In this document: one piece after another, positions 4,378 through 31,427 of the stretch
Layout of the letters: each line of letters begins with the position of its first letter
Numbering within the stretch: the stretch's first letter is position 1
DNA from: Candidatus Saccharimonadota bacterium
GTDB taxonomy: Bacteria; Bacillota_I; Bacilli_A; Mycoplasmatales; Hepatoplasmataceae
Length of the DNA: 32,000 nucleotides
Assembly: GCA_027925225.1 (NCBI GenBank)
Contig: AP027131.1
Coordinates: forward strand, 60,001-92,000
Direction: 5' to 3'
Program-made: the position numbers and the translations under genes
Notes under the pieces: generated by a model
What the model was told of the DNA's origin: nothing
The model's database searches: none
Seen by the model: the letters and a program-made list of their open reading frames with translations, nothing else

Positions 4378-5490
4378 TTAATGAAATCTTTTATTTTGAA
4401 TTCCTTTTGAAAATAATGCTAATAATAAAAACATTAATATATAAAAATATTGTAAAAGAAAATATATATTATAAAAATTATAAGAAACTTTAGTGTTTGG
4501 TTCGTTTGGATCTATAACATAAGACGTTGAATCTCAATGAAAAATATGTGGTAAAAACATTTCGTTAATTGTTAATGTGCTTGTATCAATTAATACATTA
4601 TTAATATAATATGTTGTTGTGTCTGAATTAAGATTTGTACTATTTAATGATGTTATAAGTATTGATTGTAAAGCAAAAAATGGATAAAATATTGCAAGAA
4701 TTAAATATGGAACATCTGCTTTGGCATATCTAAGACCAATGCTAATATTTAAAGTTGAATTAGAGAAATTATAATAAAACTGATTTGGAATTTCTTTTAA
4801 ATATAAAATATTATTATCACTGCTGTATGTATAAGTTATATTTGGTATACAAAAATTAATTTTTATAATTAAGAGATTCATTATTAAAAATACAAAAAAT
4901 ATAAAAAGCATTAAGATAAAAAAAGTTTTTATAGTTTTTGTTATATTTTCTATAAAAAAACATATTGACATTATAATAATCGAAATTAATAATATACTAT
5001 AATACAATCAAAAATAATTAATTTTATTTAAATCAAAATTAAAAAATAAATAATCATTTGGTGCATAATCTTTAAAATCATTAACCTTATTATCAACAAC
5101 TGCTCCAGCTATTACAATCCCATAAATAAAAAATGTTAAAAGAATTACATTTAAAATAATTGATGAATAATTTTTTAATTGATATTTATTTTCTCCTCTT
5201 ATTCTTTCATATATGTTAGATTTTTTCAAATTATAAATAAATAAACCATAATTAAATATAAAGAAAAGAATTATACTTGTAACTACAATTAATGAATACA
5301 TTTCAAAAAAATTAAATGTATTTACTGATATAAAAATTATTATAAATAAAAAAATAAAAAATAATAATTGTTTTCACGAACACATTCTTCTAAAATATAA
5401 AATAAAAAAAGCAGAAAAATTAGTTTTCTCATTTTCAATATTTTCATAATTATTTTTATTTAAAATTTTTTTTTGAGATTTTATTTCCAT
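4378..5490 (-). CDS. Multi-pass membrane protein, paralog A of a 3-copy family (function unknown), immediately downstream of the Csn2-position ATPase
   Basis: ATG at 5490 (MEIKSQKKILNKNNYENIENEK...). Track ORFs 5008-5301 and 4534-5007 are in frame, separated by TGA. The TGA at 4534-4536 also reads through to TAA at 4378-4380, adding a last hydrophobic helix (IYFLLQYFYILMFLLLALF). 370 aa with 7-8 hydrophobic segments. Confidence 0.75.
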
Positions 5491-5552: not shown

Positions 5553-6653
5553 TTATATTTTTATCTCTTCATAATAATTTTTTAGTCAACTTGTAAATTT
5601 AATTTCATTAAATTTAATTTCATTAATAACTAAAAAAAGAATAAATTTAAATTTCTCATTTTCTGTGAGCATATCAATATTTCCATAAAATTCAAATGTT
5701 TTCAAATTAATGTTTCTAAGCAAATAAGGAAGAGTTATTTCCATAAAATCCTTTTCTATTTTTTTGAAGTCATTTTTTTCAATTAAATTATAAATTTCAT
5801 CAATTTTGATTTTAAAATCTCTTATATGATTTATATTAATTTTTCAAAAATTATTGTTTGACAATAAATAATAATTAATTAAAAAATCTTTATTTATAAA
5901 GAATTTTTTAATTTTTCTTTCTGAATTTGAAAGATAAAAAAATTCATTAACATTAATATTTAAATATTTTGTAAGGGCGGGATTTCTTAATGTAATAATT
6001 ATTAAATTATTTTTTGCAAGATTGTTTATTAATTCAGAAAGTTTTTTTATTTCTACTGGATCAAGATATGTTTCTGGACAATCAAAAATAAAAATTTTAT
6101 TTTTTGATTCTAATTCAATAATTAAATTTATATATATATTTAATTTTTCTGATTTAGATAATCATTTTTCTTCTATTTCTTCATTTTGTTTATCAAAAAT
6201 AGCAATTTTAAATAATAACTCAAGAATTTCAGAATCATTTTTAAAATTAAGTTTAGGATTTAAATGATAATTATTATTTTCAAATTTAATATATTTGTTC
6301 ATTGTTTCAAGAATTAAATTTAATATTTCGTTATTTTTTAAAATATTTGTTAAATCAATATTTTTTTCTTCTAATGTTTCCAAAATATGTTTAAAGATAA
6401 TTTTTCTTAAAATAGAGGTTTTTTTAAGTTCCAATTCTTTTTTTAAATCTCATTCTTCTGCAATATAAATTATTTCTCTTTTTTCATCATATTCTCGTTC
6501 TGAAAATACCTCTCTTTTTTTATTTTGTATTAATGAAATAAAATCATTTACAAAAGTTGTCTTCCCAGAATTATTTTCCCCATAAATAGCCATTATGTTA
6601 TTTTCGGTTTTAATTTTTAAATTATTATATTTATCATTTAAATAAATTTCCAT
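5553..6653 (-). CDS. ABC/SMC-type P-loop ATPase in the csn2 position (Csn2-like, motifs intact), 366 aa
   Basis: Hand-translated codon by codon from 6653 to 5553; only TGA interrupts the frame. Walker A is GENNSGKTT, the ABC-signature-like motif is LSKSEK, and Walker B is KIFIFDCPETYLDP, followed by NLIIITLRNP (His-loop position). It lies 83 nt downstream of cas2 on the same strand. Confidence 0.65.
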
Positions 6654-6736: not shown

Positions 6737-7076
6737 TTAAATAATGATTAATGGTTCATCAGTTTGATAGTATTCTTTATTTTTTTTATTTCCCCTTATT
6801 ATTTCAATTTCCTCATATTGTTTATTTGTTATTACTAATAATCTAATATCTCCTTCAGGAGGCAAAATGTTATTAATTTTTTCTTTTGTTCTTTTTACTC
6901 AATCGTGATTATAACAATGTTTTAAATATACAGATTCTTGAATCATTATAAAACCAAGTTTTATTAATTCATTTCTAAATTTGTTCATATCAGATTGATT
7001 TTTTTTGCTTGTTGTTGGTAAGTCGTAAAATAAAAGTATTTTCATTTGTCTAAACTGAGTCTTTAATTTATCCATT
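6737..7076 (-). CDS. cas2: CRISPR-associated Cas2, apparently disrupted by a 1-nt frameshift after codon 8 of the MKILLFYD start
   Basis: ATG at 7046 (or 7076) gives MKILLFYD and then runs into TAG. The next frame reads LPTTSKKNQSDMNKFRNELIKLGFIMIQESVYLKHCYNHDWVKRTKEKINNILPPEGDIRLLVITNKQYEEIEIIRG...PLIII, ending at TAA 6737-6739. Joined, the two pieces match the type II Cas2 pattern (xxILLxFDxPT...FRKxLxxxGFxMxQxSVY). The start and stop frames differ by one nucleotide. Confidence 0.75.
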
Positions 7077-7096: not shown

Positions 7097-8200
7097 TTAA
7101 TTTATTTTCTTTTTATTAATTTTTCTTGAAATTAATGCTAATACTAAAAATAATAATATATAAAAATATGTTAATATGAAATATATATTATAAGCTGCAT
7201 AAGACATTTTAACATTGGGCTCTTCTAAAGTTCTTATATAAGATGTTGAATCTCAATGAAATAAATGAGGAATAAATAATTCATTTATTGTTGTTGTATC
7301 TGTATTTAAGACAACATTTCCAATATCGTATGTGTTACCCGGAAGAAGGGTGGTGTTATTAAAAGAGGTAATAAGAATTGATTGCAATGCAAAAAATGGA
7401 TAAAATATTGCTACAAATAAATACGGCACATCATAATTAGAAGCATTAAGACTCATACTTACATTTAAAGTATCACTGTTAATATCATAATAAATAAAGT
7501 TTTCAATTTCTCTGATATGTATTAAAGAGGTTGGATCATTTTCTACTGGATATGTTAGAATATTTGGCTTACAAAATTGTATTTTTATAAGTACAAGATC
7601 CATTATTAAATATATAAGAACAATTACAAACATTGTTATGAAAAAGTTTTTTACTGTTTTTGTAATATTTTCAACAAAAAAGCAAACTAACATAATAATT
7701 ATAGAAATTAATAACACACTATAATATAATCAAAAAAAATTAATTTCACTAAATTCAAAAGAATATACTAAAAAACCACCAGATTCATATTTAAAATCAT
7801 GAATCTGATTATCGACAACTGCACCTATTATTAATATTATGTAAATAAATAAGGTTAAAATAATTACATTTAAAATAATAGATGAATAATTTTTAAGTTG
7901 ATATTTTTTTTCTTCTCTTATCCTGGAATAAATATTTGATTTTTTTAAGTTATAAATAAATAATCCATAATTAAATGTAAAAAATAAAATAATACTTATT
8001 ACTGAAATAACAGAATACATTTCATAAAAATTTATTGTACTTATAGCAATAAAAATTATCATAAAAACAAAAAAATAAAATAGTAACTGTTTTCAGGAAC
8101 ACATTTTTTTAAAATAAAGCACAAAAAAAGCATAAAAGCTTAAATTTTTGTTTTCTTTTTTATTATTTATATTATTTTTAGTAAGATTCATACTTTGCAT
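7097..8200 (-). CDS. Multi-pass membrane protein, paralog B of the 3-copy family, located between cas1 and cas2
   Basis: ATG at 8200 (MQSMNLTKNNINNKKENKNLSFYAFF...). Track ORFs 7730-8062 and 7253-7717 are in frame. The TGA at 7253-7255 reads through to TAA at 7097-7099. 367 aa with the shared motifs FYPFFALQSILITS and PHLFHW. Confidence 0.75.
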
Positions 8201-8284: not shown

Positions 8285-9208
8285 TTAAAAATCTTCATTT
8301 TTATTGAAAGATATTTTTGGCAACATTAATTCTTTTTCATTATTTTTAAAGTATGAAATAATAGATTTTATAGTTATATCTATTGCATGTCTTACTTTTG
8401 TTATCTGATTATTTATTATTACATTTTGATCCAAAACAGAAACTAATTTAGCTCTCATTATTAAACTTATTGTTTCATCTTTTTCATTCAATAAAATTTC
8501 ATTATTTTCTACTATAATAAAATCTAATAGTGGTCTATAAGGTTCTATTAAGTCATAAGTAAGATTAAAATAATTATTTGCTGTTTTATGAAAAAAACCA
8601 AGAGAAGGATGAAGACCTGCTTTTACAATAGCACTTGAAATTTTACTTGCTAAAACTTTATATCCATAATTCATTGATTTGTTTATTGCATTATCTTGAA
8701 ATCTTATAAAACCCGAACCAAAAAGAGATATAAAATATAATCTAGCAGCCGATGATTCTCTATTTCTTTTATCTCCTTGAATTACATCATTATGATAGTT
8801 ATCCATTTTTTCTATGTTTATTTTTGAGGAGCCTAAATATTGCATTAATATTTTTTGGTTTTCTATTTTTTGTTTGATTATTTGTTGTTGAAATTTATCT
8901 TTTTCTCTTTGATTTAATTCTAATTGTAAATTAAAGTTTTGTAAAGGTTTGTGGTGACCATGAAGTGCTAATAGCAATCCTACTGGGTCATGAGATAAAT
9001 TATTTATCATAAGAGGAATATTTCTATTTGTAAGTTCAATTAGAGTTTGTATTGTTATATTTGTTTTGTAGTTATCAATAATAATAATCCCAATATCATC
9101 TAAATAAATTGGAATATTTTCTTCATTTTCCATTCCTCTTATAATTAGACTATTATTTTTTATTTTAATATTTTGATCAGTTTGTATAAAAACTGTTCTT
9201 CAATTCAT
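8285..9208 (-). CDS. cas1: CRISPR-associated integrase Cas1, type II (307 aa)
   Basis: The true start is ATG at 9208, giving MNWRTVFIQTDQNIKIKNNSLIIRG... (type II Cas1 N-terminus; the W is a TGA codon). It continues into track ORF 8285-9133, with NRESSAARLYF, GYKVLASKISSAIVKAGLHPSLGFFH and LTYDLIEPYRPLLD. Confidence 0.92.
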
Positions 9209-9327
9209 ATTTTAAAATTCCTTTTACAATTTATGAATTACATTTTTAATTTTTATCAAAATAATTATATAAAATAAGATATTATGTTTTTGATAATAAG
9301 TGATATATTCAATGAGAGGTGTTTTAA

Positions 9328-9639
9328 ATGAAAAAATTAATTATAGATGATGTAACTTTTAAAATTAAAAATGAAGAAGAAAAAGAAGATCTTATTAGAA
9401 TAATTAAAGAAATAAAAAGCAAATTAAAAGAATCTAATAATCTTCCTTCAAAAATATCTTTATTTAGAGATATTGATAAAGATAAAGATGTTTTTAAATT
9501 TTATATGGTATTTGATTCTGATGAAGATTTTGACAAATGAGATGCAAAAGTGACTCAAGAAGTAAAAGATCTTTTTATAAAAGGTTTACATAAATATTAT
9601 GTAAAATATAATTATTCAGAAAAAATTGATATTGATTAA
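9328..9639 (+). CDS. Small charged protein, family P copy 1 (103 aa, unknown function)
   Basis: SD-like GAGAGG precedes the ATG at 9328. The TGA at 9538-9540 reads as Trp (..DEDFDKWDAKV..). TAA at 9637-9639. Paralogous to 9677, 10032, 11755 and 12123. Confidence 0.7.
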
Positions 9640-9676
9640 TTTAAAAAAAATAATAAATTAAATAACAGGTGTTTAA

Positions 9677-9994
9677 ATGAAAAAAATAGTTATAGAAGAT
9701 ATGACTTTTAAAATTGAAAATAAAGAAGAAGAAAAAAATTTTATTGAAGGAATTCAAAAAATGAAAAAAATTTTAAAGGAATCATATGATATTCCTGCGA
9801 AATTTTCTTTATTTAAAAATGTTTATAAAAATAAAAATATTTTTAAACTTCATTTAGTATTCGAATCTGAAGAAGTTTATAGTGAATTTATTGCAAAAAT
9901 TTCTCAAGAAGATAGAGAAAAATTTAATGATTATTTGGGTAAATATGAAATAAAATATAGCCGTTTAGAAAAAAATGATATTAATAATTTTTAA
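9677..9994 (+). CDS. Small charged protein, family P copy 2 (105 aa)
   Basis: Intact ORF, MKKIVIEDMTFKIENKEEEKNF... It shares the family N-terminal and central motifs (PAKFSLFKN...IFKLHLVFESEE). Its C-terminus is the most divergent of the family. Confidence 0.7.
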   Translation: MKKIVIEDMTFKIENKEEEKNFIEGIQKMKKILKESYDIPAKFSLFKNVYKNKNIFKLHLVFESEEVYSEFIAKISQEDREKFNDYLGKYEIKYSRLEKNDINNF

Positions 9995-10031
9995 TAAAAA
10001 ATAGCAATATATTAAATGCAAAGGAGTTTAA

Positions 10032-10343
10032 ATGAAAAAATTAATCATAGAAGACATAACTTTTAAAATTGAAAATAAAGAAGAAGAAAAAAATTTTATT
10101 GATTGAATTAAAAAAATGAAAAAAGATTTAAAAGAATCAAATAATCTCCCTACAAAATTTTCTTTGTTTAGAGATATTGATAAAGATAAAGATATTTTTA
10201 AACTTTATTTAGTATTTGATTCTGATGAAGATTTTGACAAATGAGATGCAAAAGTACCTCAAAAAAATAAAGATGATTTTAGAAATGAGTTAGGTAAATA
10301 TTTTGTAAAATATAATTACTCAGAAAAAATTGATATTGATTAA
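10032..10343 (+). CDS. Small charged protein, family P copy 3 (103 aa)
   Basis: AAGGAG SD, then ATG at 10032. Two in-frame TGA codons (Trp). It ends ...KYNYSEKIDID with TAA at 10341-10343. Missed by the standard-code ORF track. Confidence 0.7.
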
Positions 10344-10356
10344 TATTTATAAAAAA

Positions 10357-10385
10357 AATACTGTTAAAACAGTATTTTTTATTTT
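10357..10385 (+). terminator. Rho-independent terminator after the P1-P3 cluster (shared with convergent membrane paralog C)
   Basis: AATACTG-TTAAAA-CAGTATT hairpin followed by a T-run, with an A-run upstream, so it could act in both directions. Confidence 0.55.
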
Positions 10386-11473
10386 ATGTTATTTTTATTA
10401 ATTTTTCTTGAAATTAATGCCAATACTAAAAATAGCAATATATAAAAATATGTTAATATAAAATATATGTTATAAGCTAAATAAGACATTTTAATATTAG
10501 ATTCATTGAAATCTGGGTTGTAAAGATTTAAATTTCAATGAAATAAATGAGGAAAAAATAATTCATTTATTACTGTATTATTGTTTAGCATAGTATTTCC
10601 AATATAATATGTTTTATCTGGAATTAGGCTAGTGTTATTAAGAGAAGTTATAAGAATTGATTGCAATGCAAAAAAAGGATAAAATATTGTACATATTAAA
10701 TATGGCACTTCTTCTTTTTGCGTATTAAGAGCAATACTTACATTTAAAGCATTATTTGAAGCATCATAATATAAATAATTATCAATTTCTTTAAAAGTCA
10801 CTTTATTTGTTTCACTATCTACTGCATCAACTATTATGCTTGGTCTACAAAATGAAATTTTTATAAATACAAGATCCATTATTAAATATATAAAAACAAT
10901 AGCAAACATTATTATGAAAAAATTTTTTACTGTTTTTGTAATATTTTCAACAAAAAAGCAAACTAACATAATAATTATTGAAATTAATAAAACACTATAA
11001 TATAATCAAAAAAAGTTAATTTCACTAAAAACAAAGGAAAATGTTAAATAATTACTAGTTTCTGGTTTAAAATCATTGATTGTATTATCAATAACAGCTC
11101 CTAAAATTATTATTAAATAAATAAATATTGTTAAAATGATTACATTTAAAATTATCGAAGAATAATTTTTAAGATGATATTTTTCTTCTCCTCTTATTTT
11201 AGAATAGATATTTGATTTTTTTAAATTGTAGATAAACAAACCATAATTAAATGTAAAAAACAAAATTATGCTTATTACAATAACTATTGAATACATTTCA
11301 TAAAAATTCAATGTGCTTATAGAAATATAAATTATTAAAAAAACAAAAAAATAAAATAACATTTGTTTTCAAGAACACATTTTTTTAAAATAAAGTGTAA
11401 AAAAACAAAAAAAGCTTAAATTTTTATTTTCTTTTTTATTATTTATATTATTTTTAATTTTTATATTATTCAT
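10379..11473 (-). CDS. Multi-pass membrane protein, paralog C of the 3-copy family
   Basis: ATG at 11473 (MNNIKIKNNINNKKENKNLSFFCFF...). Track ORFs 11006-11362 and 10535-10969 are in frame. The TGA at 10535-10537 reads through to TAA at 10379-10381. 364 aa. Confidence 0.75.
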
Positions 11474-11689
11474 ATTTTGTGTTTAATTATTAAATTTTTT
11501 TCTAATTTTAAATATAATGTTATTTTTTTACTGATTATATTTTATAAGTTTGTTTTTTAAATAAAGATTTTTTATTTTAATAATCTAATTAATTTTATAA
11601 TATTATTTTTAAATTTATAAAATCCTTTTCTAGAAATTAAAAGTTTTTTAAAAAAACATAAAAAACCTAAATGTGAATTTAAAAGTGAT

Positions 11690-11743
11690 ATATAAAAATA
11701 CATTTTAAAATATAATTATGTAGAAAAAATTGATATTGATTAA
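11690..11743 (+). pseudogene. 3' fragment of a sixth family-P gene
   Basis: Reads ...KYILKYNYVEKIDID-TAA (stop at 11741-11743), matching the conserved family C-terminus (KYNYSEKIDID). No upstream coding part remains. Confidence 0.5.
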
Positions 11744-11754
11744 TAGGAGGAAAA

Positions 11755-12063
11755 ATGCAAAAATTTTATAATTTTGAAATTACATTTAAAGTTAATAAAA
11801 TAGATCAAACAGATTTTTTAAAAAATTTAAAAACAATTAAAAATGAATTAACTAATAAAAATGTTTTGCCAATTTATATAACATTATTTAAAAATATTGA
11901 TAAAAATAAAGATTTTTTTACAATATATTTAGGTTTTATGAGTGATAAAGGTTTTGATGAATGAAAGAAAAATGTTCCTCAAGAGTTAAAAAATATATAC
12001 AATAATAATTTAAAAAAATATGTTATTAAAACAGACCACAAAGAACAACAAAGCATTGACTAA
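11755..12063 (+). CDS. Small charged protein, family P copy 4 (102 aa, most divergent N-terminus)
   Basis: AGGAGG SD, then ATG at 11755. One in-frame TGA (..GFDEWKKNVPQE..). TAA at 12061-12063. Confidence 0.65.
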
Positions 12064-12122
12064 TTAAATAAAATATAAAATATTAAATTTATTTATGAAA
12101 TATATTTTTTATGGAGTTTAAA

Positions 12123-12434
12123 ATGAAAAAATTAATTATAGATGATGTAACTTACAAAATTGAAAAAGAAGAAGATCAAAAAGCTTTTATTGAAAAAATG
12201 AAAGAAGTAAAAAGTAAATTAAAAAAAATTAACTTACTTCCTACTAAATTTTCTTTATATAGAGATATCGATAAAGATAAAGATACTTTTAAGCTTTATA
12301 TGGTATTTGATTCTGATGAAGATTTTGATAAATGAGATGAAAAATTTCCTCAAGAAATTAGAGATATCTTTATAAATTATTTTCGTAAATATCTTATAAA
12401 ATATAATTATTCAGAAGAAATTGATATTGATTAA
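12123..12434 (+). CDS. Small charged protein, family P copy 5 (103 aa)
   Basis: GGAG SD, then ATG at 12123 (MKKLIIDDVTYKIEKEED...). The track start at 12111 is less likely. The TGA at 12333-12335 reads as Trp. TAA at 12432-12434. Confidence 0.7.
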
Positions 12435-12454
12435 TTAATTATTTAATTATAAAA

Positions 12455-12478
12455 AATACTGCTAAAGCAGTATTTTTT
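12455..12478 (+). terminator. Rho-independent terminator after P4-P5
   Basis: AATACTGC-TAAA-GCAGTATT followed by a T-run. It is a near copy of the terminator at 10357-10385. Confidence 0.55.
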
Positions 12479-12520
12479 ATATAAAAATCAATTAGCTAAA
12501 ACCAATCAATTAACCAAAAC
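12479..12520 (-). repeat. Orphan CRISPR-repeat remnants (two tandem partial repeats, no spacer)
   Basis: TATAAAAATCAATTAGCTAAAAC followed by CAATCAATTAACCAAAAC. The second contains 16 nt (ATCAATTAACCAAAAC) identical to the 3' part of the plus-strand array repeat. Orientation is the same as the array. Confidence 0.6.
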
Positions 12521-12603
12521 ATATTTTAAGTATATTTAATAGGTTTATATAATTTTTCATTTTTTTTGTTTAAGTTTATATTTATTTTAGGGAGATAAAT
12601 ATT

Positions 12604-12747
12604 ATGGAAAAAGAAAACCATAAACATCAATTTAAATGCGAACACTGTGGACATGAATATAAAAGCAAATATGAAGAAAAAGAGTGCCCTGAGTGCGGAG
12701 CAATGAATCAATGCAAAATAAAAGATGAAGAAAATAAAGAGATTTAA
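12604..12747 (+). CDS. 47-aa zinc-ribbon mini-protein (CxxC...CxxC)
   Basis: GGGAG SD lies 8 nt upstream of the ATG at 12604. Sequence MEKENHKHQFKCEHCGHEYKSKYEEKECPECGAMNQCKIKDEENKEI, with TAA at 12745-12747 and a hairpin terminator following. Confidence 0.5.
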   Translation: MEKENHKHQFKCEHCGHEYKSKYEEKECPECGAMNQCKIKDEENKEI

Positions 12748-12765
12748 ATATCTCTTTATTTTTTA
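12736..12765 (+). terminator. Hairpin terminator between the zinc-ribbon gene and the convergent aldolase
   Basis: AAAGAGAT-TTAAAT-ATCTCTTT followed by ATTTTTT. Confidence 0.45.
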
Positions 12766-12771
12766 TAAAAA

Positions 12772-13629
12772 TTATTTTAATCAATTTTTATTATCGGCAC
12801 CAACTGCTTTTATTTTTTCTTTTGCAATTTCTTTTGCTTTATTTATCCCAACTTGAAAGATTTTTCTTAAATCAAATGCTTCAGGATTTTTATCCATATA
12901 TTCTAAAATTCCAGAGATAATAGCTTTTTTAAGTTCGCTATCAAAATTAGCTTTTCTAATTCCTGCACTTACAGCTTTGCTGATTTGCTCTAATGGAATT
13001 CCAGTTCCGCCATGCAGTACTAGAGGAACTTTTCCTTTGCTAGAAATTTCTTTTATTAAATCAAAATTAATTTTTGGTTCTTTGCAATAAAAACCATGAC
13101 TAGTTCCACAAGCAATTGCTAACATATCAATATTAGTATTATCAATAAATTTTATTGCATCTTCTACTTTTGTAAAATGATCATTATCTTCTTCTATATC
13201 ATCTTCTTTTCCGCCAATTATTCCAATTTCCGCTTCTAATGTTATATTTTCATTTTTAATAAGATTTCTAACTTTGTTTGTAATTTCAATATTTTCTTTA
13301 AATGACAATGTAGACCCATCAATCATTAATGATGTATAACCAAGCTCAAGTGATTTCTGATGATATTTAATATCGCGTCCATGATCTAAATGAACAGCAA
13401 CAGGAATTTTTGCTTTCTTTGCACAAGCAATAATAATTGCCGCTAACTCTTCGTGTCCAGCATAATTTATTCCTCCCTCGGTTGTTTGTAAAATAATTGG
13501 AGCATTTAATTCTTCTGCAGCAAGAATTGCAGCTTTTGCTCCTTCTAAATTTACGACTCCAAAAGCAGGAACTGCATATTTATTTTTTATTGCATCTTTT
13601 AATAAAATTTTTCCACCTACAAGGGGCAT
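12772..13629 (-). CDS. fba: Class II ketose-bisphosphate aldolase (fructose- or tagatose-1,6-bisphosphate aldolase family), 285 aa
   Basis: MPLVGGKILLKDAIKNKYAVPAFGVVNLE..., PVAVHLDHG and PLVLHGGTGIP. The track stop at 12781-12783 is TGA, so the protein runs 2 more codons past that Trp codon to TAA at 12772-12774. Substrate specificity cannot be decided from sequence alone. Confidence 0.85.
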
Positions 13630-13824
13630 AATTTCACCTCTTTAAAATACTATTTTTAACTTTAATATACTCCTTTTTTAAAGAAATTAGTTTTAATTAA
13701 TTTTAAAGTTTTATCATTAATTTGTAAAAAGAAATAAAAATATAATAAAAGGAGGATTGGTCATTTATTTTTTAATAACTAAAAACTTTATTTTACTTGG
13801 CGGTTTAAAAAAAGGAGGTTATTA

Positions 13825-14898
13825 ATGACGAAAGAGCTATTATTTTTTTCTTCTGGAAATACAAAAACAGAAGTTAAGAAAATTGACGATAAAAAAAAGA
13901 TTCCCAAAAATGAGCGTGATTCTTTTATTGATTTTAGTAGATTTTTTCATCCATCTAAATGATCATCTGAAGATTTTACATTGTATTCAATGATTGTTTT
14001 CATTATAATTCTACTTTTAATTTCTATAGTTAATATAGTCCTTTTTGGTTTGGGGTTTGATGCCAGTAATCAATCGGCTTTTGGGAAAACAATTAATGGA
14101 AAAGAAGGAATAGTATTGGAGGATGGTTTTTCAAAAACTAACGGTTTTTATATTGTTTCTTGAATTTTATTATTTTTATCATTAATTGCGTCTGTTTTTC
14201 AATTTATGTCCAATATCTTTTTAATTAAATTTTCAAAAAGATTTATTTGATGAAATCAAATTTCTATGTTTTCATTTTTACTTATAGATATTGTTTATGG
14301 AGCATGATGAATTGCAATTTCACAAATTATTGGACTTGTTCTTGGACAACAACGTTATTTTGCATGAGATAAACAAGATAAAAAAACAGATATTGATCCA
14401 TATAAATCACAACTTAATATTAAATGATTAGTAATTGTGGGGGGGGTTGCAGTTGTTTTTGTTCTTGCTTCTGTTTTACTAATTACACCAACAATATTTA
14501 CAGATAATAAAGAATTTTATACATATGTTGAAGGTACACCATCAGATATACCAAATGATGTAGATGTTATAGAAAGTACTATTCATCAATCTGGTAATTT
14601 TACAACATATGGTTATACTGTAGAGTCTGGACTACTTTATGATGTTGCTCCTTGATGAGATATGGTAGTAGGAATTTTTCAAGTTTCAGGATTAATTCTG
14701 CTTACACGTAAAACATATTGAGCATGAATTTCATTTGAAGTAGCTATGGCAGCACAAATGGTTGTTTACTTTGAAGCAGGAAATTTAATTCTTTCAATTC
14801 AAAGTATTCTATTATTTATTTCTAATTTATTACCACTTTACTACTGATTTACAATGAACAAAAAATCAGCAAGAAAAGCAAAACAAGGTATAGCTTAA
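13825..14898 (+). CDS. Multi-pass membrane protein, tentatively PnuC-like (riboside transporter family), 357 aa
   Basis: AAAGGAGG SD, then ATG at 13825. Track ORFs 13981 and 14437 are in frame, joined by many TGA codons. It is Trp-rich with a two-repeat TM organisation, and the C-terminal LTRKTYWAWISFEV...LLPLYYWF resembles PnuC. Family assignment is from memory only. Confidence 0.45.
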
Positions 14899-14910
14899 AG
14901 GAGGAATAAG

Positions 14911-15345
14911 ATGAAAGTTTATATTATTGCAAAAGATAATTTTAGAGAATATGCAAACAATTTAAATGATTACATTAAAAATATTCTTAAAAAAGATGTT
15001 TTGTTTTTTTTAAAAGAAGACAATTTATCTTATATAAAAGAGATTGTTAATATAAGTGAAAAAATAGTACTAAATAATAATAAAGATAGACTTATAACAA
15101 TTGATGAATCTGGCGGATTAGGATTTTGTGCTGCTGCAAAAGTTAAAAAAATGATTGTGGCACAATGCGCCGATCAACACTCTGCACATATGACAAGAGA
15201 ACACAATAATGCTTTAGGTATAAGTTTAGGGGCTGATATCACAAATATATTTATTGCAAAAGAAATATCAAAATTATTTCTTGAAACAGAATTTGCAGCC
15301 GGAAGACACATGATAAGAATTGACATGTTAAATAAATTGGGATAG
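14911..15345 (+). CDS. lacA: Galactose-6-phosphate isomerase subunit LacA (RpiB/LacA/LacB family)
   Basis: 144 aa. MTREHNNALGISLG and the C-terminal GRHMIRIDMLNKLG match the LacA signature (GRHQIRVDMLNK). Confidence 0.85.
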   Translation: MKVYIIAKDNFREYANNLNDYIKNILKKDVLFFLKEDNLSYIKEIVNISEKIVLNNNKDRLITIDESGGLGFCAAAKVKKMIVAQCADQHSAHMTREHNNALGISLGADITNIFIAKEISKLFLETEFAAGRHMIRIDMLNKLG

Positions 15346-15354
15346 GAGAGAAAA

Positions 15355-15849
15355 ATGAAGATTGTAATAGGTTGTGACCATATTGTTACTGATGTTAAAG
15401 ATAAATTAAAAGAATCTTTAATTTCAAAAGGTCATGAAGTTTATGATGTTGGTACATATGATTTTGTAAGAACTCATTATCCAATTTTTGGTCAAAAAAT
15501 TGCTGAAAATGTTGCAAGCAAAAAATATGATATTGGTGTTGCAATTTGTGGAACTGGTGTAGGAATATCAAATTCTAGTCAAAAAATAAAGGGTGCAAGA
15601 GTTGCGCTTGTAAGAGATTTATTAAGTGCAGAAATTGCCCGTTCACAATATGATGCAAATATTATTGCTTTTGGCGGAAGAATAACAGGTCTTGGAATTA
15701 TGGAAGAAGCAATTGATGTTTTTATAAATACTAAGTTTAATGGCGAAAAAGAAGTTGTAAACTTTTTAGATAATATTGTTAAAAAAAATAAAACAGTTTC
15801 ATTTAAAAAAGAATTGAAAGACTGAGAAAAAGGAAAATATCATGATTAA
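15355..15849 (+). CDS. lacB: Galactose-6-phosphate isomerase subunit LacB (RpiB family), 164 aa
   Basis: MKIVIGCDHIVTD...THYPIFG...AICGTGVGISN. The TGA at 15823-15825 reads as Trp and restores the typical LacB end, WEKGKYHD. TAA at 15847-15849. Confidence 0.88.
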
Positions 15850-16879
15850 CACAAAAAATAAAGATAACAAAGAACTTTTACTTGCGGTTGATATTGGTGG
15901 AACTTTTATCAAATTAGCTATTATTACACGAGAAGGATTAATGCTTGATCGTTGAAGAATTAAAACTAATACAAATGAAAAAGGAAAATATATTCCTGAA
16001 GAAATAACAAATCAATTTAAAAATAAATTAAATGAAGAAAAATATCAAAATAAAAAGGCAATTGCAATGGGAATCGGAATTCCTGGTTTTCCTGCACTTG
16101 ATGGAACTGTTAAGTTTTCCGGAAATATTGGATGAAAAAATTATGATGTAAAAAAAGATCTTAAGAAATGATGAAATGATTTACCAATAGCTGTACATAA
16201 TGATTGTGATATGGCTGCACTTGGAGAAAAGTTTGTTGGTAATTTTAAAAAAGTTGATAATTTTGTTTTTATAACATTGGGAACAGGAATGGGTGCTGGA
16301 ATTTTAATTAATGGAAAATTATATCAAGGTTCAGGGGGAACGGCCGGTGAAATTGGCCATATTCCAATTCAAGGTTTTAAAACAAGATTTCAATGTACTT
16401 GTGGATTACCTGAATGTGCTGAACCTACTTTTTCAGCAACCGGATTAATCAATATATATAATGAATTTAGAAGTAAAAATTCTAATATTAAAAGTATTCT
16501 TGATGATAAAGAAATAAATGGGAAAAATATTTGAGATGCAGTTAGAGAAAATGATAAATTAGCAATAATGGCTGCAAAAGAATTTGGAGAATATGGAGGA
16601 AGATTATTAGCCACTGTTGCAATGTCTTATAATCCAGAAGTAATTATTCTGGGCGGCGGGCTTGCTCATGATAATGAAACAATACTTGAATATGTTATTC
16701 CTGTTTATAAAAAATTTACACATGATTTTATAAGAGAAACAACAAGAGTTGAATTATGTAGTGTTGGAAATGATGCTGGACTCTATGGAGCATCATATTC
16801 AGCAATGATTTTATATGATCAAAATATGCTTAATTTTGTAAACCATTATTATGCTACAAAAAATGAATCTGTTTTATAA
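15842..16879 (+). CDS. ROK-family sugar kinase (glucokinase-like), 345 aa
   Basis: The ATG at 15842 overlaps the lacB end. LLLAVDIGGTFIKLA, GGTAGEIGHIP and the ROK zinc motif CTCGLPECAEP. Track ORFs 16211 and 16568 are in frame, joined by TGA. Confidence 0.85.
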
Positions 16880-16910
16880 ATTCATTTTTATGAGTTAATT
16901 AACATTAAAA

Positions 16911-16939
16911 AAACTTCTTTACTAAAAAGAAGTTTTTTT
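16911..16939 (+). terminator. Rho-independent terminator after the ROK kinase gene
   Basis: AAACTTCTT-TACTAAA-AAGAAGTTT followed by T7. Confidence 0.6.
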
Positions 16940-16944
16940 AATTT

Positions 16945-17040
16945 TATTTCATTTAATTATAAATATCAATTAACTAAAACACATTATTCACAAAGTGTTA
17001 TTTATAAATATCAATTAACTAAAACACATTATAAATATAC
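16945..17040 (-). repeat. Degenerate CRISPR repeats detached from the main array
   Basis: 16945-16980 (TATTTCATTTAATTATAAATATCAATTAACTAAAAC) matches about 29 of 36 repeat positions. 17003-17025 (TATAAATATCAATTAACTAAAAC) is a 23-nt partial repeat. The core TATAAATAT recurs at 17030-17038. Confidence 0.7.
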
Positions 17041-17313
17041 CATTTTCTTTTTTTTTTAAAAAGTATTTTTACATTATTCAATTTATTTTTATATAATTTT
17101 TTTATAAATTAAACATAATTAAATTTTTAAATATACAAATAAAAAATTTAGAAAGGTATTTAAGTGGATAAGGAAACAACAATTTTAATAATTTCATTTA
17201 TTTTATGTTTGTTAGAAAATAATATAAATTTTATTATACATATTGAAAAAAAGGAAAATTTTTCTTTACACAGAAATTTATTAATAATTTTATTTTTTTT
17301 TATTTTTATACAT

Positions 17314-20300
17314 TTTTTTTTATTACTATAAATATCAATTAATCAAAACCTCCTATAAATATTTCTCATACTATATTGTGTATTCATCTGCTTATAAATA
17401 TCAATTAACCAAAACATAAACAAAAATGCCACCACTCTTAATATAGTATTCATCTGCTTATAAATATCAATTAACCAAAACTTAAGATATACTATTTTTG
17501 GAACAACTAAAGTATTCATCTGCTTATAAATATCAATTAACCAAAACATTTCATTGACCTAGAAGAAGCACGCTTAAGTATTCATCTGCTTATAAATATC
17601 AATTAACCAAAATGATGAGTTTGTTGTTAATACATTAGTATTTGTATTCATCTGCTTATAAATATCAATTAACCAAAACCAAATGGGGCATACCATCCAA
17701 TTATGCTGGGTATTCATCTGCTTATAAATATCAATTAACCAAAACGTCCAGACAGTAGATTACAGAGACCTGAATGTATTCATCTGCTTATAAATATCAA
17801 TTAACCAAAACAGTTTATCATATGTGTTTATTTCGTAGAAAGTATTCATCTGCTTATAAATATCAATTAACCAAAACTATAAAAAATATCATAAATAGTA
17901 TAATATTGTATTCATCTGCTTATAAATATCAATTAACCAAAACACACTCATTTATTTTTATTTTTAATTCTTTGTATTCATCTGCTTATAAATATCAATT
18001 AACCAAAACCCCCCCCTTTTCTGCCTTTTGTGGAACGTATTCATCTGCTTATAAATATCAATTAACCAAAACATCTTCTTCAGATAATCTGATATTAAAG
18101 CCGTATTCATCTGCTTATAAATATCAATTAACCAAAACAAATACTTAAATTGGCTCATATTATTCAAAGTATTCATCTGCTTATAAATATCAATTAACCA
18201 AAACACCAAAAAACATCAGCAGAGAGCGCATATTGTATTCATCTGCTTATAAATATCAATTAACCAAAACAAGAAGATTTATTTAAAAATGTACAAAAAG
18301 GTATTCATCTGCTTATAAATATCAATTAACCAAAACGTGTTTAGGGTCTATATTAAAAGAAAAAATGTATTCATCTGCTTATAAATATCAATTAACCAAA
18401 ACGTGGATTATTTGAAGAATTATATTATGAAAGTATTCATCTGCTTATAAATATCAATTAACCAAAACCCCCTATGGTCTGCCTTATGTGGAACTAGGGT
18501 ATTCATCTGCTTATAAATATCAATTAACCAAAACGTTTAACTAGCAGTAGGGGGGTCTTTTATGGTATTCATCTGCTTATAAATATCAATTAACCAAAAC
18601 TAGGTGGATAAACTAATAGGGTGGATTGAAGTATTCATCTGCTTATAAATATCAATTAACCAAAACTTAACAAGAGATTTATACATTTCTTTAATTGTAT
18701 TCATCTGCTTATAAATATCAATTAACCAAAACGAGAAAACTATACTGATTTTTATATTTCTAGTATTCATCTGCTTATAAATATCAATTAACCAAAACTA
18801 TGTAGGGTTATTGCTTAAATAATAACTAGTATTCATCTGCTTATAAATATCAATTAACCAAAACATAATTCTTGCTCTGTCTCTGTAATTTCTCGTATTC
18901 ATCTGCTTATAAATATCAATTAACCAAAACGTTATCTCTTAGAAATGTTTACCCAATTTAGTATTCATCTGCTTATAAATATCAATTAACCAAAACAATT
19001 TTGAAGATGCTCCTAATTATTTAGATGTATTCATCTGCTTATAAATATCAATTAACCAAAACTATGTGGGATTATTGCTTAAATAATAACTAGTATTCAT
19101 CTGCTTATAAATATCAATTAACCAAAACGAATTCCACCAAGCATTAAATCAAATACACGTATTCATCTGCTTATAAATATCAATTAACCAAAACCTAAGG
19201 TGTCTGCCACTCACCTATTTATTTGTATTCATCTGCTTATAAATATCAATTAACCAAAACACTCTTAAATTAATATCACTTAAATCATTAGTATTCATCT
19301 GCTTATAAATATCAATTAACCAAAACACTCATATTAATCATTTACTTGTGGACAGAGTATTCATCTGCTTATAAATATCAATTAACCAAAACGATCAATG
19401 GGAACTGGAAAAGATTTACTTAGTATTCATCTGCTTATAAATATCAATTAACCAAAACAACTCTTTCATGTTTATGATAAATCAACCTGTATTCATCTGC
19501 TTATAAATATCAATTAACCAAAACACCATCAGGAAACCCAACAACAGGATCAGTGTATTCATCTGCTTATAAATATCAATTAACCAAAACTAATGCTAGC
19601 ATCATAAGAAGAAGAATATTGTATTCATCTGCTTATAAATATCAATTAACCAAAACGTTCTCAATACTTTAATTCTTAAATTTATAGTATTCATCTGCTT
19701 ATAAATATCAATTAACCAAAACTAATACCAGCATCATAAGAAGAAGAATATTGTATTCATCTGCTTATAAATATCAATTAACCAAAACGGTTGGTGGTCA
19801 CTATATGTAGTATCCAATGTATTCATCTGCTTATAAATATCAATTAACCAAAACTATTTTTTATTCAACAATATAAACATATTAGTATTCATCTGCTTAT
19901 AAATATCAATTAACCAAAACGAAAGAATTAATAAATTTAAGAGCATAAAAGTATTCATCTGCTTATAAATATCAATTAACCAAAACTTAGTTTAACCACC
20001 TATCAAGTAGTAGTTCGTATTCATCTGCTTATAAATATCAATTAACCAAAACGTAAGGGATTTGTTGAGCATGGTTTTGTTAGTATTCATCTGCTTATAA
20101 ATATCAATTAACCAAAACTCTATCTTAGATAAATCAAGTTCTTTTAAAGTATTCATCTGCTTATAAATATCAATTAACCAAAACGGGTCATTCTAAAAGA
20201 AAAAAATAAATGAAGTATTCATCTGCTTATAAATATCAATTAACCAAAACTTGCCTCTTTTATCTTTTATACCACTATGAGTATTCATCTGCTTATAAAT

Positions 20301-20316
20301 ATCAATTAACCAAAAC
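17314..20316 (-). CRISPR. CRISPR array: 45 full 36-nt repeats plus 1 degenerate terminal repeat, and 45 spacers (44 of 30 nt, 1 of 27 nt)
   Basis: The plus-strand repeat is GTATTCATCTGCTTATAAATATCAATTAACCAAAAC, and the minus-strand sense is GTTTTGGTTAATTGATATTTATAAGCAGATGAATAC. Repeat starts at 17380, 17446 ... 20281 were checked one by one. The period is 66 nt except 17974 to 18037 (63 nt). The degenerate repeat at 17314-17349 marks the trailer end. Transcription direction is inferred from the GTTTT start, the cas9 strand and the tracrRNA polarity. Confidence 0.97.
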
Positions 20317-23940: not shown

Positions 23941-24125
23941 GAACTATCTAGTTTATTTGTTTATAAATGTCAATTAACCAAAACAAAAATTCATCTGTTT
24001 ATAAATATCAATTAGCCAAGATAGTGATTTACTTGAGATTTGATTATAAATTTCAAGGGACATCTTAGGGTACCCAGGTAACCCTGTAATCCCCCTGGTT
24101 GAGCATCTTTTGATGCTCTTTTTAT
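23941..24125 (+). ncRNA. tracrRNA (primary transcript about 185 nt) with two tandem anti-repeats, stem-loops and an intrinsic terminator
   Basis: Anti-repeat A (23949-23984) and anti-repeat B (23987-24022) both align without gaps to the plus-strand repeat, so both are complementary to the crRNA repeat. A 9-bp stem follows at 24033-24056 (TTGAGATTT/AAATTTCAA), then GC-rich stems at 24067-24098 and the terminator GAGCATC-TTTT-GATGCTC plus T-run at 24101-24125. It is divergent from cas9, as in many type II loci. Confidence 0.8.
24101..24125 (+). terminator. Intrinsic terminator of the tracrRNA
   Basis: A perfect 7-bp stem GAGCATC/GATGCTC with loop TTTT, followed by TTTTTATTTT. Confidence 0.75.
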
Positions 24126-31352: not shown

Positions 31353-31427
31353 GGCACAGTAGCCAAGTTGGTAAGGCAAGAGGCTGCAACCCTCTCATCG
31401 TCAGTTCGAATCTGTCCTGTGCCTCCA
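31353..31427 (+). tRNA. tRNA-Cys (GCA), CCA encoded
   Basis: Folded by hand. Acceptor stem GGCACAG/CTGTGCC, anticodon stem AGAGG/CCTCT with loop CTGCAAC, T-loop TTCGAAT, discriminator T plus CCA. 75 nt. Confidence 0.9.

Follow-up and report, generated by a model that had tools for sequence, protein, structure and literature searches.

A mollicute Csn2 lineage that keeps an ABC-type nucleotide-binding pocket, with ATP as a possible latch

What does the gene behind cas2 encode in the type II CRISPR locus of Candidatus Hepatoplasma vulgare, and what could the nucleotide-binding motifs of its product be for? Type II-A systems cannot acquire spacers without Csn2. The canonical protein is an ATP-independent tetramer with head and leg domains that is threaded on double-stranded DNA, its heads docking Cas1 dimers (PMC3695520; PMC6620040), and reviews refer to Csn2 as an “inactivated P-loop ATPase” (PMC10734277). 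The gene considered here lies in a stretch of 32,000 nucleotides (contig AP027131.1, positions 60,001 to 92,000; hereafter the window), for which an original prediction had proposed either a catalytically competent, ancestral-like Csn2 or an unrelated defence ATPase that had taken its place. We conclude that the gene, csn2, encodes a Csn2 homologue and not a foreign ATPase. The textbook trait of lost nucleotide-binding motifs does not hold for this protein, as GENNSGKT and Asp191 are present and conserved, and ATP is probably bound rather than hydrolysed.

The window has a G+C content of about 20 %, and its open reading frames (ORFs) are fragmented by TGA if read with table 11. Under genetic code 4 (TGA = Trp), csn2 is a single frame of 366 amino acids (aa) with four in-frame TGA codons, located downstream of cas2 on the same strand after a gap of 83 bp. 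Its translation is an exact database match to HPAVJP_0620, a “hypothetical protein” of Candidatus Hepatoplasma vulgare that corresponds, by gene order, to BDV02173.1. The identity of the product is carried, first, by the PADLOC Csn2 model PDLC01597 (CAS-II-A, acquisition-associated), which matches the protein with an E-value of 8.6e-34 and aligns residues 1-346 with profile positions 1-332 of 338; the protein ranks as a regular member, with no family-level difference. The next PADLOC matches, mad3 (3e-9) and mad8 (7e-7), both of MADS, are about 25 or more orders of magnitude weaker. Furthermore, PDLC01597 is matched over almost the full length by 26 of the 27 members of the family to which the protein belongs, and its best fit, P0023 (1.7e-99 over the full length), has an intact GENNSGKT; therefore, the curated model represents P-loop-bearing proteins. 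Another member, P0026, also matches two further PADLOC Csn2 models, PDLC02142 (2e-12) and PDLC01379 (1e-9).

Second, the predicted fold points in the same direction. An AlphaFold2 (AF2) model computed on the family alignment (predicted local distance difference test, pLDDT, 88.4; predicted template-modelling score, pTM, 0.82) has a P-loop-like alpha/beta head and a predicted helical leg, as in Csn2. The top Foldseek match in the PDB is 3ZTH, the long Csn2 Stu0660 of S. thermophilus (E=3e-8, TM-score 0.52/0.54), followed at lower ranks by ABCG, GajA and PtuA ATPases near 1e-5 and by the short Csn2s 3V7F (1.4e-4) and 3QHQ (4.3e-4). The original prediction had proposed to superpose such a model on Csn2 structures; the Foldseek matches comprise one long and two short Csn2s. 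In addition, the paper describing this genome had already assigned Csn2, via HHpred, in each Hepatoplasmataceae genome (PMC10928387); in an earlier view, csn2 was missing in Hepatoplasma (PMC6882279).

Third, the gene is consistently found in the same place. When 1.84 billion representatives were searched exhaustively with a profile, about 27 full-length relatives ranked ahead of generic ABC ATPases, corresponding to about 27 clusters at 50 % identity, mostly of Mollicutes with a few Firmicutes; a narrow-alignment profile search of genome contigs matched H. scabrum alone, and a word-indexed search for homologues yielded few relatives and no informative names. In the databases all members are named “hypothetical”, and none is called Csn2. 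The survey of the gene after cas2 that the original prediction had suggested gave a uniform picture: csn2 directly follows cas2 in all 12 distinct loci, which cover all branches of the family (in ten of them in the order cas1-cas2-X), and in none of the 12 was a member met outside this position or outside a CRISPR context. The genes cas1, cas2 and csn2 are contiguous in H. scabrum (L007) and also in L008, from a relative with 66 % identity; in L008, csn2 is followed by a permease and a SecA gene, the same that flank this window. The locus of P0026 (L012, 1480-2535) uses the standard genetic code and has SpoIIM, MutS and exonuclease VII genes as neighbours; therefore, the P-loop-bearing subfamily is not confined to Mollicutes. 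The locus of P0007 (L005/L006, 1431-9098) contains cas2-csn2 without an adjacent cas1, beside a PLD-helicase, a PIF1-like helicase and a GmrSD-family nuclease gene, and could be a defence island whose adaptation module is a remnant or was rearranged.

Compared with known Csn2 proteins, the closest counterpart is Stu0660, which resembles the protein here in being its best structural match, in length (347 vs 366 aa), in its position after cas2 in a type II-A locus, and in combining a P-loop-like head with a helical insertion. It differs in showing only ~15 % identity and no sequence-level match, and it is not known to carry a Walker A motif. The label of a Stu0660-type long Csn2 was considered and rejected, as a fold search with the C-terminal domain alone indicates that this domain is not shared with 3ZTH; accordingly, we regard the family as a separate Csn2 subfamily that has its own C-terminal domain. 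The short Csn2s (S. pyogenes 3TOC/3V7F, S. agalactiae 3QHQ, S. thermophilus 6QXF; PF09711), which form an ATP-independent tetrameric DNA-end-binding ring (PMC3695520, PMC6620040), share the genomic role and position as well as the fold (E=1e-4 to 4e-4). They differ in being ~220 aa long, in having no C-terminal domain, and in the replacement of the Walker B Asp (…FVNS…); of 120 canonical short sequences, none carries a Walker A motif. The S. pyogenes Csn2 segment on which the original prediction had based its alignment proved authentic (3TOC/3V7F), and hhalign reproduced the proposed register, pairing KKLLIFVNSGAFLTKDE with KIFIFDCPETYLDPVE and LFLEPRE with IITLRNP, at E-values that are not significant.

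How complete, then, is the pocket? All motifs quoted in the original prediction are present, the helical insertion included (Table 1). The “complete” ABC/SMC motif set claimed for them, however, holds for Walker A and the Walker B Asp and breaks down at three catalytic positions: residue 192 (D+1 relative to the Walker B Asp, the position of the catalytic Glu in ABC/SMC ATPases) is Cys, the His of the H-loop is replaced by Arg, and the Gln of the Q-loop by Glu. The residue at D+3 is acidic (Glu194). The signature-like LSKSEK has the spacing expected for a signature motif, but its sequence departs from LSGGQ. In the model, the segment YIAEEW would take the role of the Q-loop, and the helical insertion would be the equivalent of either the Csn2 leg or the helical subdomain of ABC ATPases, the head and leg architecture of Csn2 being known from PMC6620040. 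That the P-loop is no chance pattern follows from its glycines, two of just three in the whole protein, from the rarity of GxxxxGK[ST] in shuffled versions of the protein (25 of 200,000), and from its invariance in relatives; in the six closest of these (33-85 % identity), Walker A, Asp191 and L165/S166/E169 are all invariant. In Pfam, neither SMC_N (22.4 bits, cut-off 40) nor ABC_tran (20.5 bits, cut-off 25) reaches its gathering score, and the NCBIfam matches are weak ones to ABC-transporter ATPases.

Among the 27 full-length members, Walker A and the Walker B Asp are jointly present in 21 and jointly absent in six. Asp191 thus occurs in 21/21 P-loop-bearing vs 0/6 P-loop-lost members, the signature Ser166 in 17/21 vs 1/6, and an acidic residue at the Q-loop position in 19/21 vs 1/6. 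Glu at D+1 is found in a single member (P0020) and His at the H-loop in none, whereas D+3 is acidic in 26 of the 27, P-loop-lost members included. The motifs are conserved across lineages at 17-43 % overall identity, and remain so at the low end of 17-25 %. The most conserved stretch of the subfamily is DLKKE..L.KTS.LR, which is retained also in P-loop-lost members and probably serves a nucleotide-independent function, e.g. contact with DNA or Cas1.

A distance tree places the P-loop losses at two separate positions, both within P-loop-bearing lineages. The first is a clade of five, which includes the Csn2 of Candidatus Tyloplasma litorale (P0034) from the same bacterial family; the second is P0016, a neighbour of the P-loop-bearing P0013. 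With at least two independent losses, the intact pocket is therefore taken to be ancestral and under selection, and within the subfamily the sequences indicate clearly that the change ran from intact to lost. The term “ancestral-like” used in the original prediction is upheld in this sense, namely within the subfamily, given these repeated losses in P-loop-bearing lineages.

What would such a pocket do? We consider it moderately probable that the Csn2 proteins of this small subfamily kept an ancestral ABC-type pocket with Walker A, Walker B Asp, D-loop and a signature-like LSxSE, lost the hydrolytic residues, and use ATP as a latch with little turnover. By analogy with canonical Csn2, the protein would form a ring through its head and helical-leg domains; this ring would be threaded on the ends of double-stranded DNA and would dock Cas1-Cas2 while prespacers are captured. 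The departure from canonical Csn2 would be an Mg-ATP held between two heads, by Walker A on one side and by the partner's signature Ser on the other; this ATP would close or stabilise the ring via head dimerisation, with slow or no turnover. In ABC ATPases the signature Ser acts in trans across a head-to-head dimer, and mutation of the catalytic Glu or the H-loop His blocks hydrolysis and permits ATP-bound dimers. Likewise, in ABC proteins with degenerate sites ATP is bound stably and dimers form, but little ATP is hydrolysed. These sites and the E-to-Q and H-to-A mutants resemble the protein here in having an intact Walker A and Walker B Asp together with substitutions of the catalytic Glu and the H-loop His, and it is from this analogy that a latch with slow or no turnover would follow; structures of ABCG1 E242Q and of HlyB mutants are among the PDB sequence and fold matches of the family. 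They differ in belonging to transporter or translation-factor domains and not to a CRISPR adaptation protein, for which ATP binding is predicted. Hydrolysis is expected to be poor because the catalytic Glu (Cys here) and the H-loop His (Arg here) are missing across the family, and “catalytically competent” in the original prediction was for the same reason an overstatement. Two points weigh against the latch and the selected pocket behind it: the acidic residue at D+3 or Glu66 might substitute as the catalytic base, and the covariation of the motifs rests on only two independent loss events, so that Fisher p-values are inflated.

A more far-reaching version is conceivable, although we give it less credence than the latch itself. 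In this scenario, the subfamily would represent the ancestral state of Csn2 as a whole, an ATP-gated clamp on DNA ends derived from an OLD/AAA_15-like ABC ATPase, and the streptococcal Csn2s would be later, constitutively closed and nucleotide-free forms. If so, ATP binding across the head dimer would control closure of the ring on prespacer DNA and the hand-off to Cas1-Cas2, and the repeated P-loop losses within the subfamily would record this transition in progress. The AAA_15/AAA_21/OLD-type defence ATPases (GajA, PtuA, AriA, Old, mad3/mad8) are indeed weak but repeated secondary matches, which suggests that they are the kind of ATPase from which Csn2 descended. For the protein here, AAA_21 is matched with E=0.17, and only other members of the family match the AriA, Old, PtuA and GajA models (1e-6 to 1e-10). 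AAA_15/OLD-type families carry DEPE..LHP and TTHSP motifs, similar in style to DCPETYLDP and T[LT]RNP here. They differ in that the 12 loci contain no Toprim or HNH partner, in that the subfamily is found after cas2 only in these loci, and in the absence of the catalytic Glu and His from the protein here.

Alternatively, Csn2 of this subfamily could be a turnover-competent ATPase with a non-canonical base, Glu194 at D+3 or Glu66, that powers DNA-end loading or release, sliding, or the hand-off of prespacers to Cas1-Cas2. The subfamily retains Walker A and the D-loop, the Walker B Asp and the signature Ser, and these features covary; D+3 is acidic in nearly every member, and the family shows weak matches to active ATPases of the AAA_15/OLD type, which its DxPE...L.P and TTRNP resemble in style (DEPE...LHP and TTHSP). 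Moreover, P0020 (L010, 7001-8077), from the Spiroplasma endosymbiont of Amphibalanus improvisus, is the sole member with a canonical Walker B “DE” (LLIDEPEL) and thereby the best candidate for a hydrolysis-competent Csn2. We nevertheless regard turnover as unlikely for the subfamily at large. Of the 27 members, 26 lack the catalytic Glu and all lack the H-loop His, and in well-studied ABC ATPases either substitution alone cuts hydrolysis by orders of magnitude. Furthermore, members that have lost the P-loop still retain the acidic residue at D+3, which thus has no tie to catalysis.

A further alternative questions the name itself: an AAA_15/OLD-like ABC ATPase might have been recruited independently to the site after cas2 in Mollicutes, so that the Csn2 label would derive from position and only the ABC fold would be shared. 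Several negative results speak for this possibility and against our identification. The Pfam models PF09711 and PF16813 and the NCBIfam Csn2 models gave no match at E-values up to 1, and hhalign against short Csn2 remained non-significant with a 3-sequence profile (E=0.22) as with a 24-sequence one (E=0.13), the profile being shallow (Neff 2.0) and its available members all streptococcal with at least 56 % identity. By sequence, the family reaches no solved Csn2: phmmer and the family-profile hmmsearch against PDB sequences retrieved no Csn2 chain, only weak ABC, SMC and PtuA P-loop matches, and P0026 as the sole query against PDB sequences gave no match. The C-terminal domain does not resemble its Stu0660 counterpart; taken alone (residues 245-366), its best fold match in the PDB has E=2.7, and 3ZTH was not retrieved. 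Finally, the secondary PADLOC matches of the family are to mad3, mad8, AriA, Old, PtuA and GajA. We judge independent recruitment improbable all the same. Stu0660 is the top structure, with an about 1000-fold better E-value and a much higher TM-score than ABC, GajA and PtuA proteins; P0026 bridges to the PDLC02142 and PDLC01379 models; and HHpred found the Csn2 relationship independently (PMC10928387). The hhalign register, though non-significant, is collinear along 121 columns that take in the signature region, Walker B and the H-loop. In addition, the nuclease partner typical of OLD, Gabija and Septu is present in none of the loci. The replacement by an unrelated AAA_15/21 defence ATPase that the original prediction had offered as its alternative is likewise disfavoured, such matches lying ~25 or more orders of magnitude below the Csn2 match.

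It is very improbable, to our mind, that the motifs are a relic without present function and that the protein acts as a nucleotide-free canonical Csn2. Six pocket-less members do remain in cas1-cas2-csn2 loci, and the pocket is hence dispensable in some lineages. A decaying relic, however, does not fit with the strict conservation of the motifs between such divergent lineages, with the loss of Walker A and the Walker B Asp jointly and not piecemeal, or with the two glycines, of only three, kept in the P-loop. The notion that Csn2 and the downstream membrane paralog A (4378-5490) form a separate defence or transport module merits hardly any credence: the paralog is adjacent and on the same strand in the window and the Csn2 protein has weak ABC-transporter ATPase matches, but no paralog stands beside csn2 in H. 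scabrum (L007) or L008, which also removes the basis for the cooperation envisaged in the original prediction, such a neighbour occurs in no other locus of the family, and the paralogs form a scattered three-copy family of which one copy splits cas1 from cas2.

Table 1. Features of the csn2 gene, its product and the CRISPR locus in the window (AF2, AlphaFold2 model; residues are those of the Csn2 protein)
Feature	Position	Strand	Evidence or remark
csn2, P-loop-retaining subfamily, 366 aa	5553..6653	-	code-4 ORF, PADLOC PDLC01597, AF2, Foldseek, PMC10928387
Walker A / P-loop GENNSGKT, residues 25-32	6558..6581	-	intact in 21/27 family members
Q-loop-position segment YIAEEW, residues 63-68, Glu66 vs Gln of ABC ATPases	6450..6467	-	after model strand 61-64
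DLKKE..L.KTS.LR motif, residues 69-83	6405..6449	-	E73, K78, S80 at least 90 % conserved across 27 sequences
Helical insertion, residues ~70-164	6162..6446	-	AF2 secondary structure
Signature-like LSKSEK, residues 165-170, 26 residues ahead of Walker B Asp	6144..6161	-	Ser166 tracks P-loop
Walker B and D-loop KIFIFDCPETYLDP, residues 186-199; Walker B hhhhD = 187-191	6057..6098	-	Asp191 present
H-loop region NLIIITLRNP, residues 216-225, Arg223 for His	5979..6008	-	His at this position in 0/27 family members
C-terminal helical domain, family-specific, residues 245-366	5556..5921	-	AF2 of domain alone, pLDDT 90.2
cas2	6737..7075	-	TIGR01573 E=4e-20; PF09827 E=2e-16
cas1 (type II)	8285..9208	-	TIGR03639 E=2.6e-71
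CRISPR array, 45 perfect 36-nt repeats, 66-bp period	17380..20316	.	repeat analysis
cas9, 1154 aa	20349..23813	-	code-4 ORF; size; beside array; translation read by eye; Cas9 entry in PMC10928387
Putative tracrRNA anti-repeat, repeat-like, upstream of and divergent from cas9	23987..24022	+	30/36 repeat positions match

Regarding the locus as a whole, the CRISPR operon is split, yet all of its components look intact. A membrane-protein gene (7097-8200) is inserted between cas1 and cas2, and ~8 kb (9200-17380) separate cas1, cas2 and csn2 from cas9 and the array; this stretch contains a cluster of paralogs and ORFs at 12772-16879 which, by reading alone, resemble sugar-metabolism genes. The assignment of cas9 is made from its translation, size and position and the entry in PMC10928387. 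The repeat-like copy just upstream of cas9 is probably the tracrRNA anti-repeat; a degenerate repeat copy also lies at 16948-16980 (+), ~400 bp past the array end, and an Rfam scan of the window returned one tRNA alone (31353-31424).

The inserted gene belongs to three paralogs encoding polytopic membrane proteins of ~365 aa that are 61-62 % identical (4378-5490, 7097-8200 and 10379-11473, all -). Judged from gene content they are lineage-specific insertions and not Csn2 partners, because they are absent from the corresponding loci L007 and L008, and they look like a family recently expanded in this genome. Interleaved with membrane paralog C are five paralogous proteins of ~103 aa (MKKLIIDDVTFKI...; 9328-9639, 9677-9994, 10032-10343, 11755-12063 and 12111-12434, all +), which, together with the membrane paralogs, may constitute a two-gene cassette. 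Searches of Pfam, NCBIfam, PADLOC and PHROG with both groups gave no family match beyond a weak, sub-threshold ABM-like one (E=0.024) for the small proteins.

The Csn2 identity of the gene has already been published (PMC10928387), and the subfamily already has a curated profile. As to a P-loop-intact Csn2 lineage, we found no published text on one; Makarova 2011 (Biology Direct) does not mention Csn2, and classification papers beyond those consulted (e.g. Chylinski et al. 2014, Makarova/Koonin) may already note such a lineage. The practical consequence concerns annotation: because the members carry the label “hypothetical” and escape the Csn2 models of Pfam and NCBIfam, type II-A loci of mollicutes have been mistaken for II-C or defective ones (PMC6882279, and PMC3942034 as cited in PMC10928387).

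A natural Csn2 lineage with an intact, selected pocket would stand between Csn2 and ABC-type ATPases as an evolutionary intermediate. It also offers natural pairs of close relatives with and without the pocket, e.g. Hepatoplasma vs Tyloplasma within one bacterial family, and P0013 vs P0016. Such pairs make it testable whether ring loading was once nucleotide-gated, which bears on how a closed ring gets on and off DNA and on the origin of Csn2.

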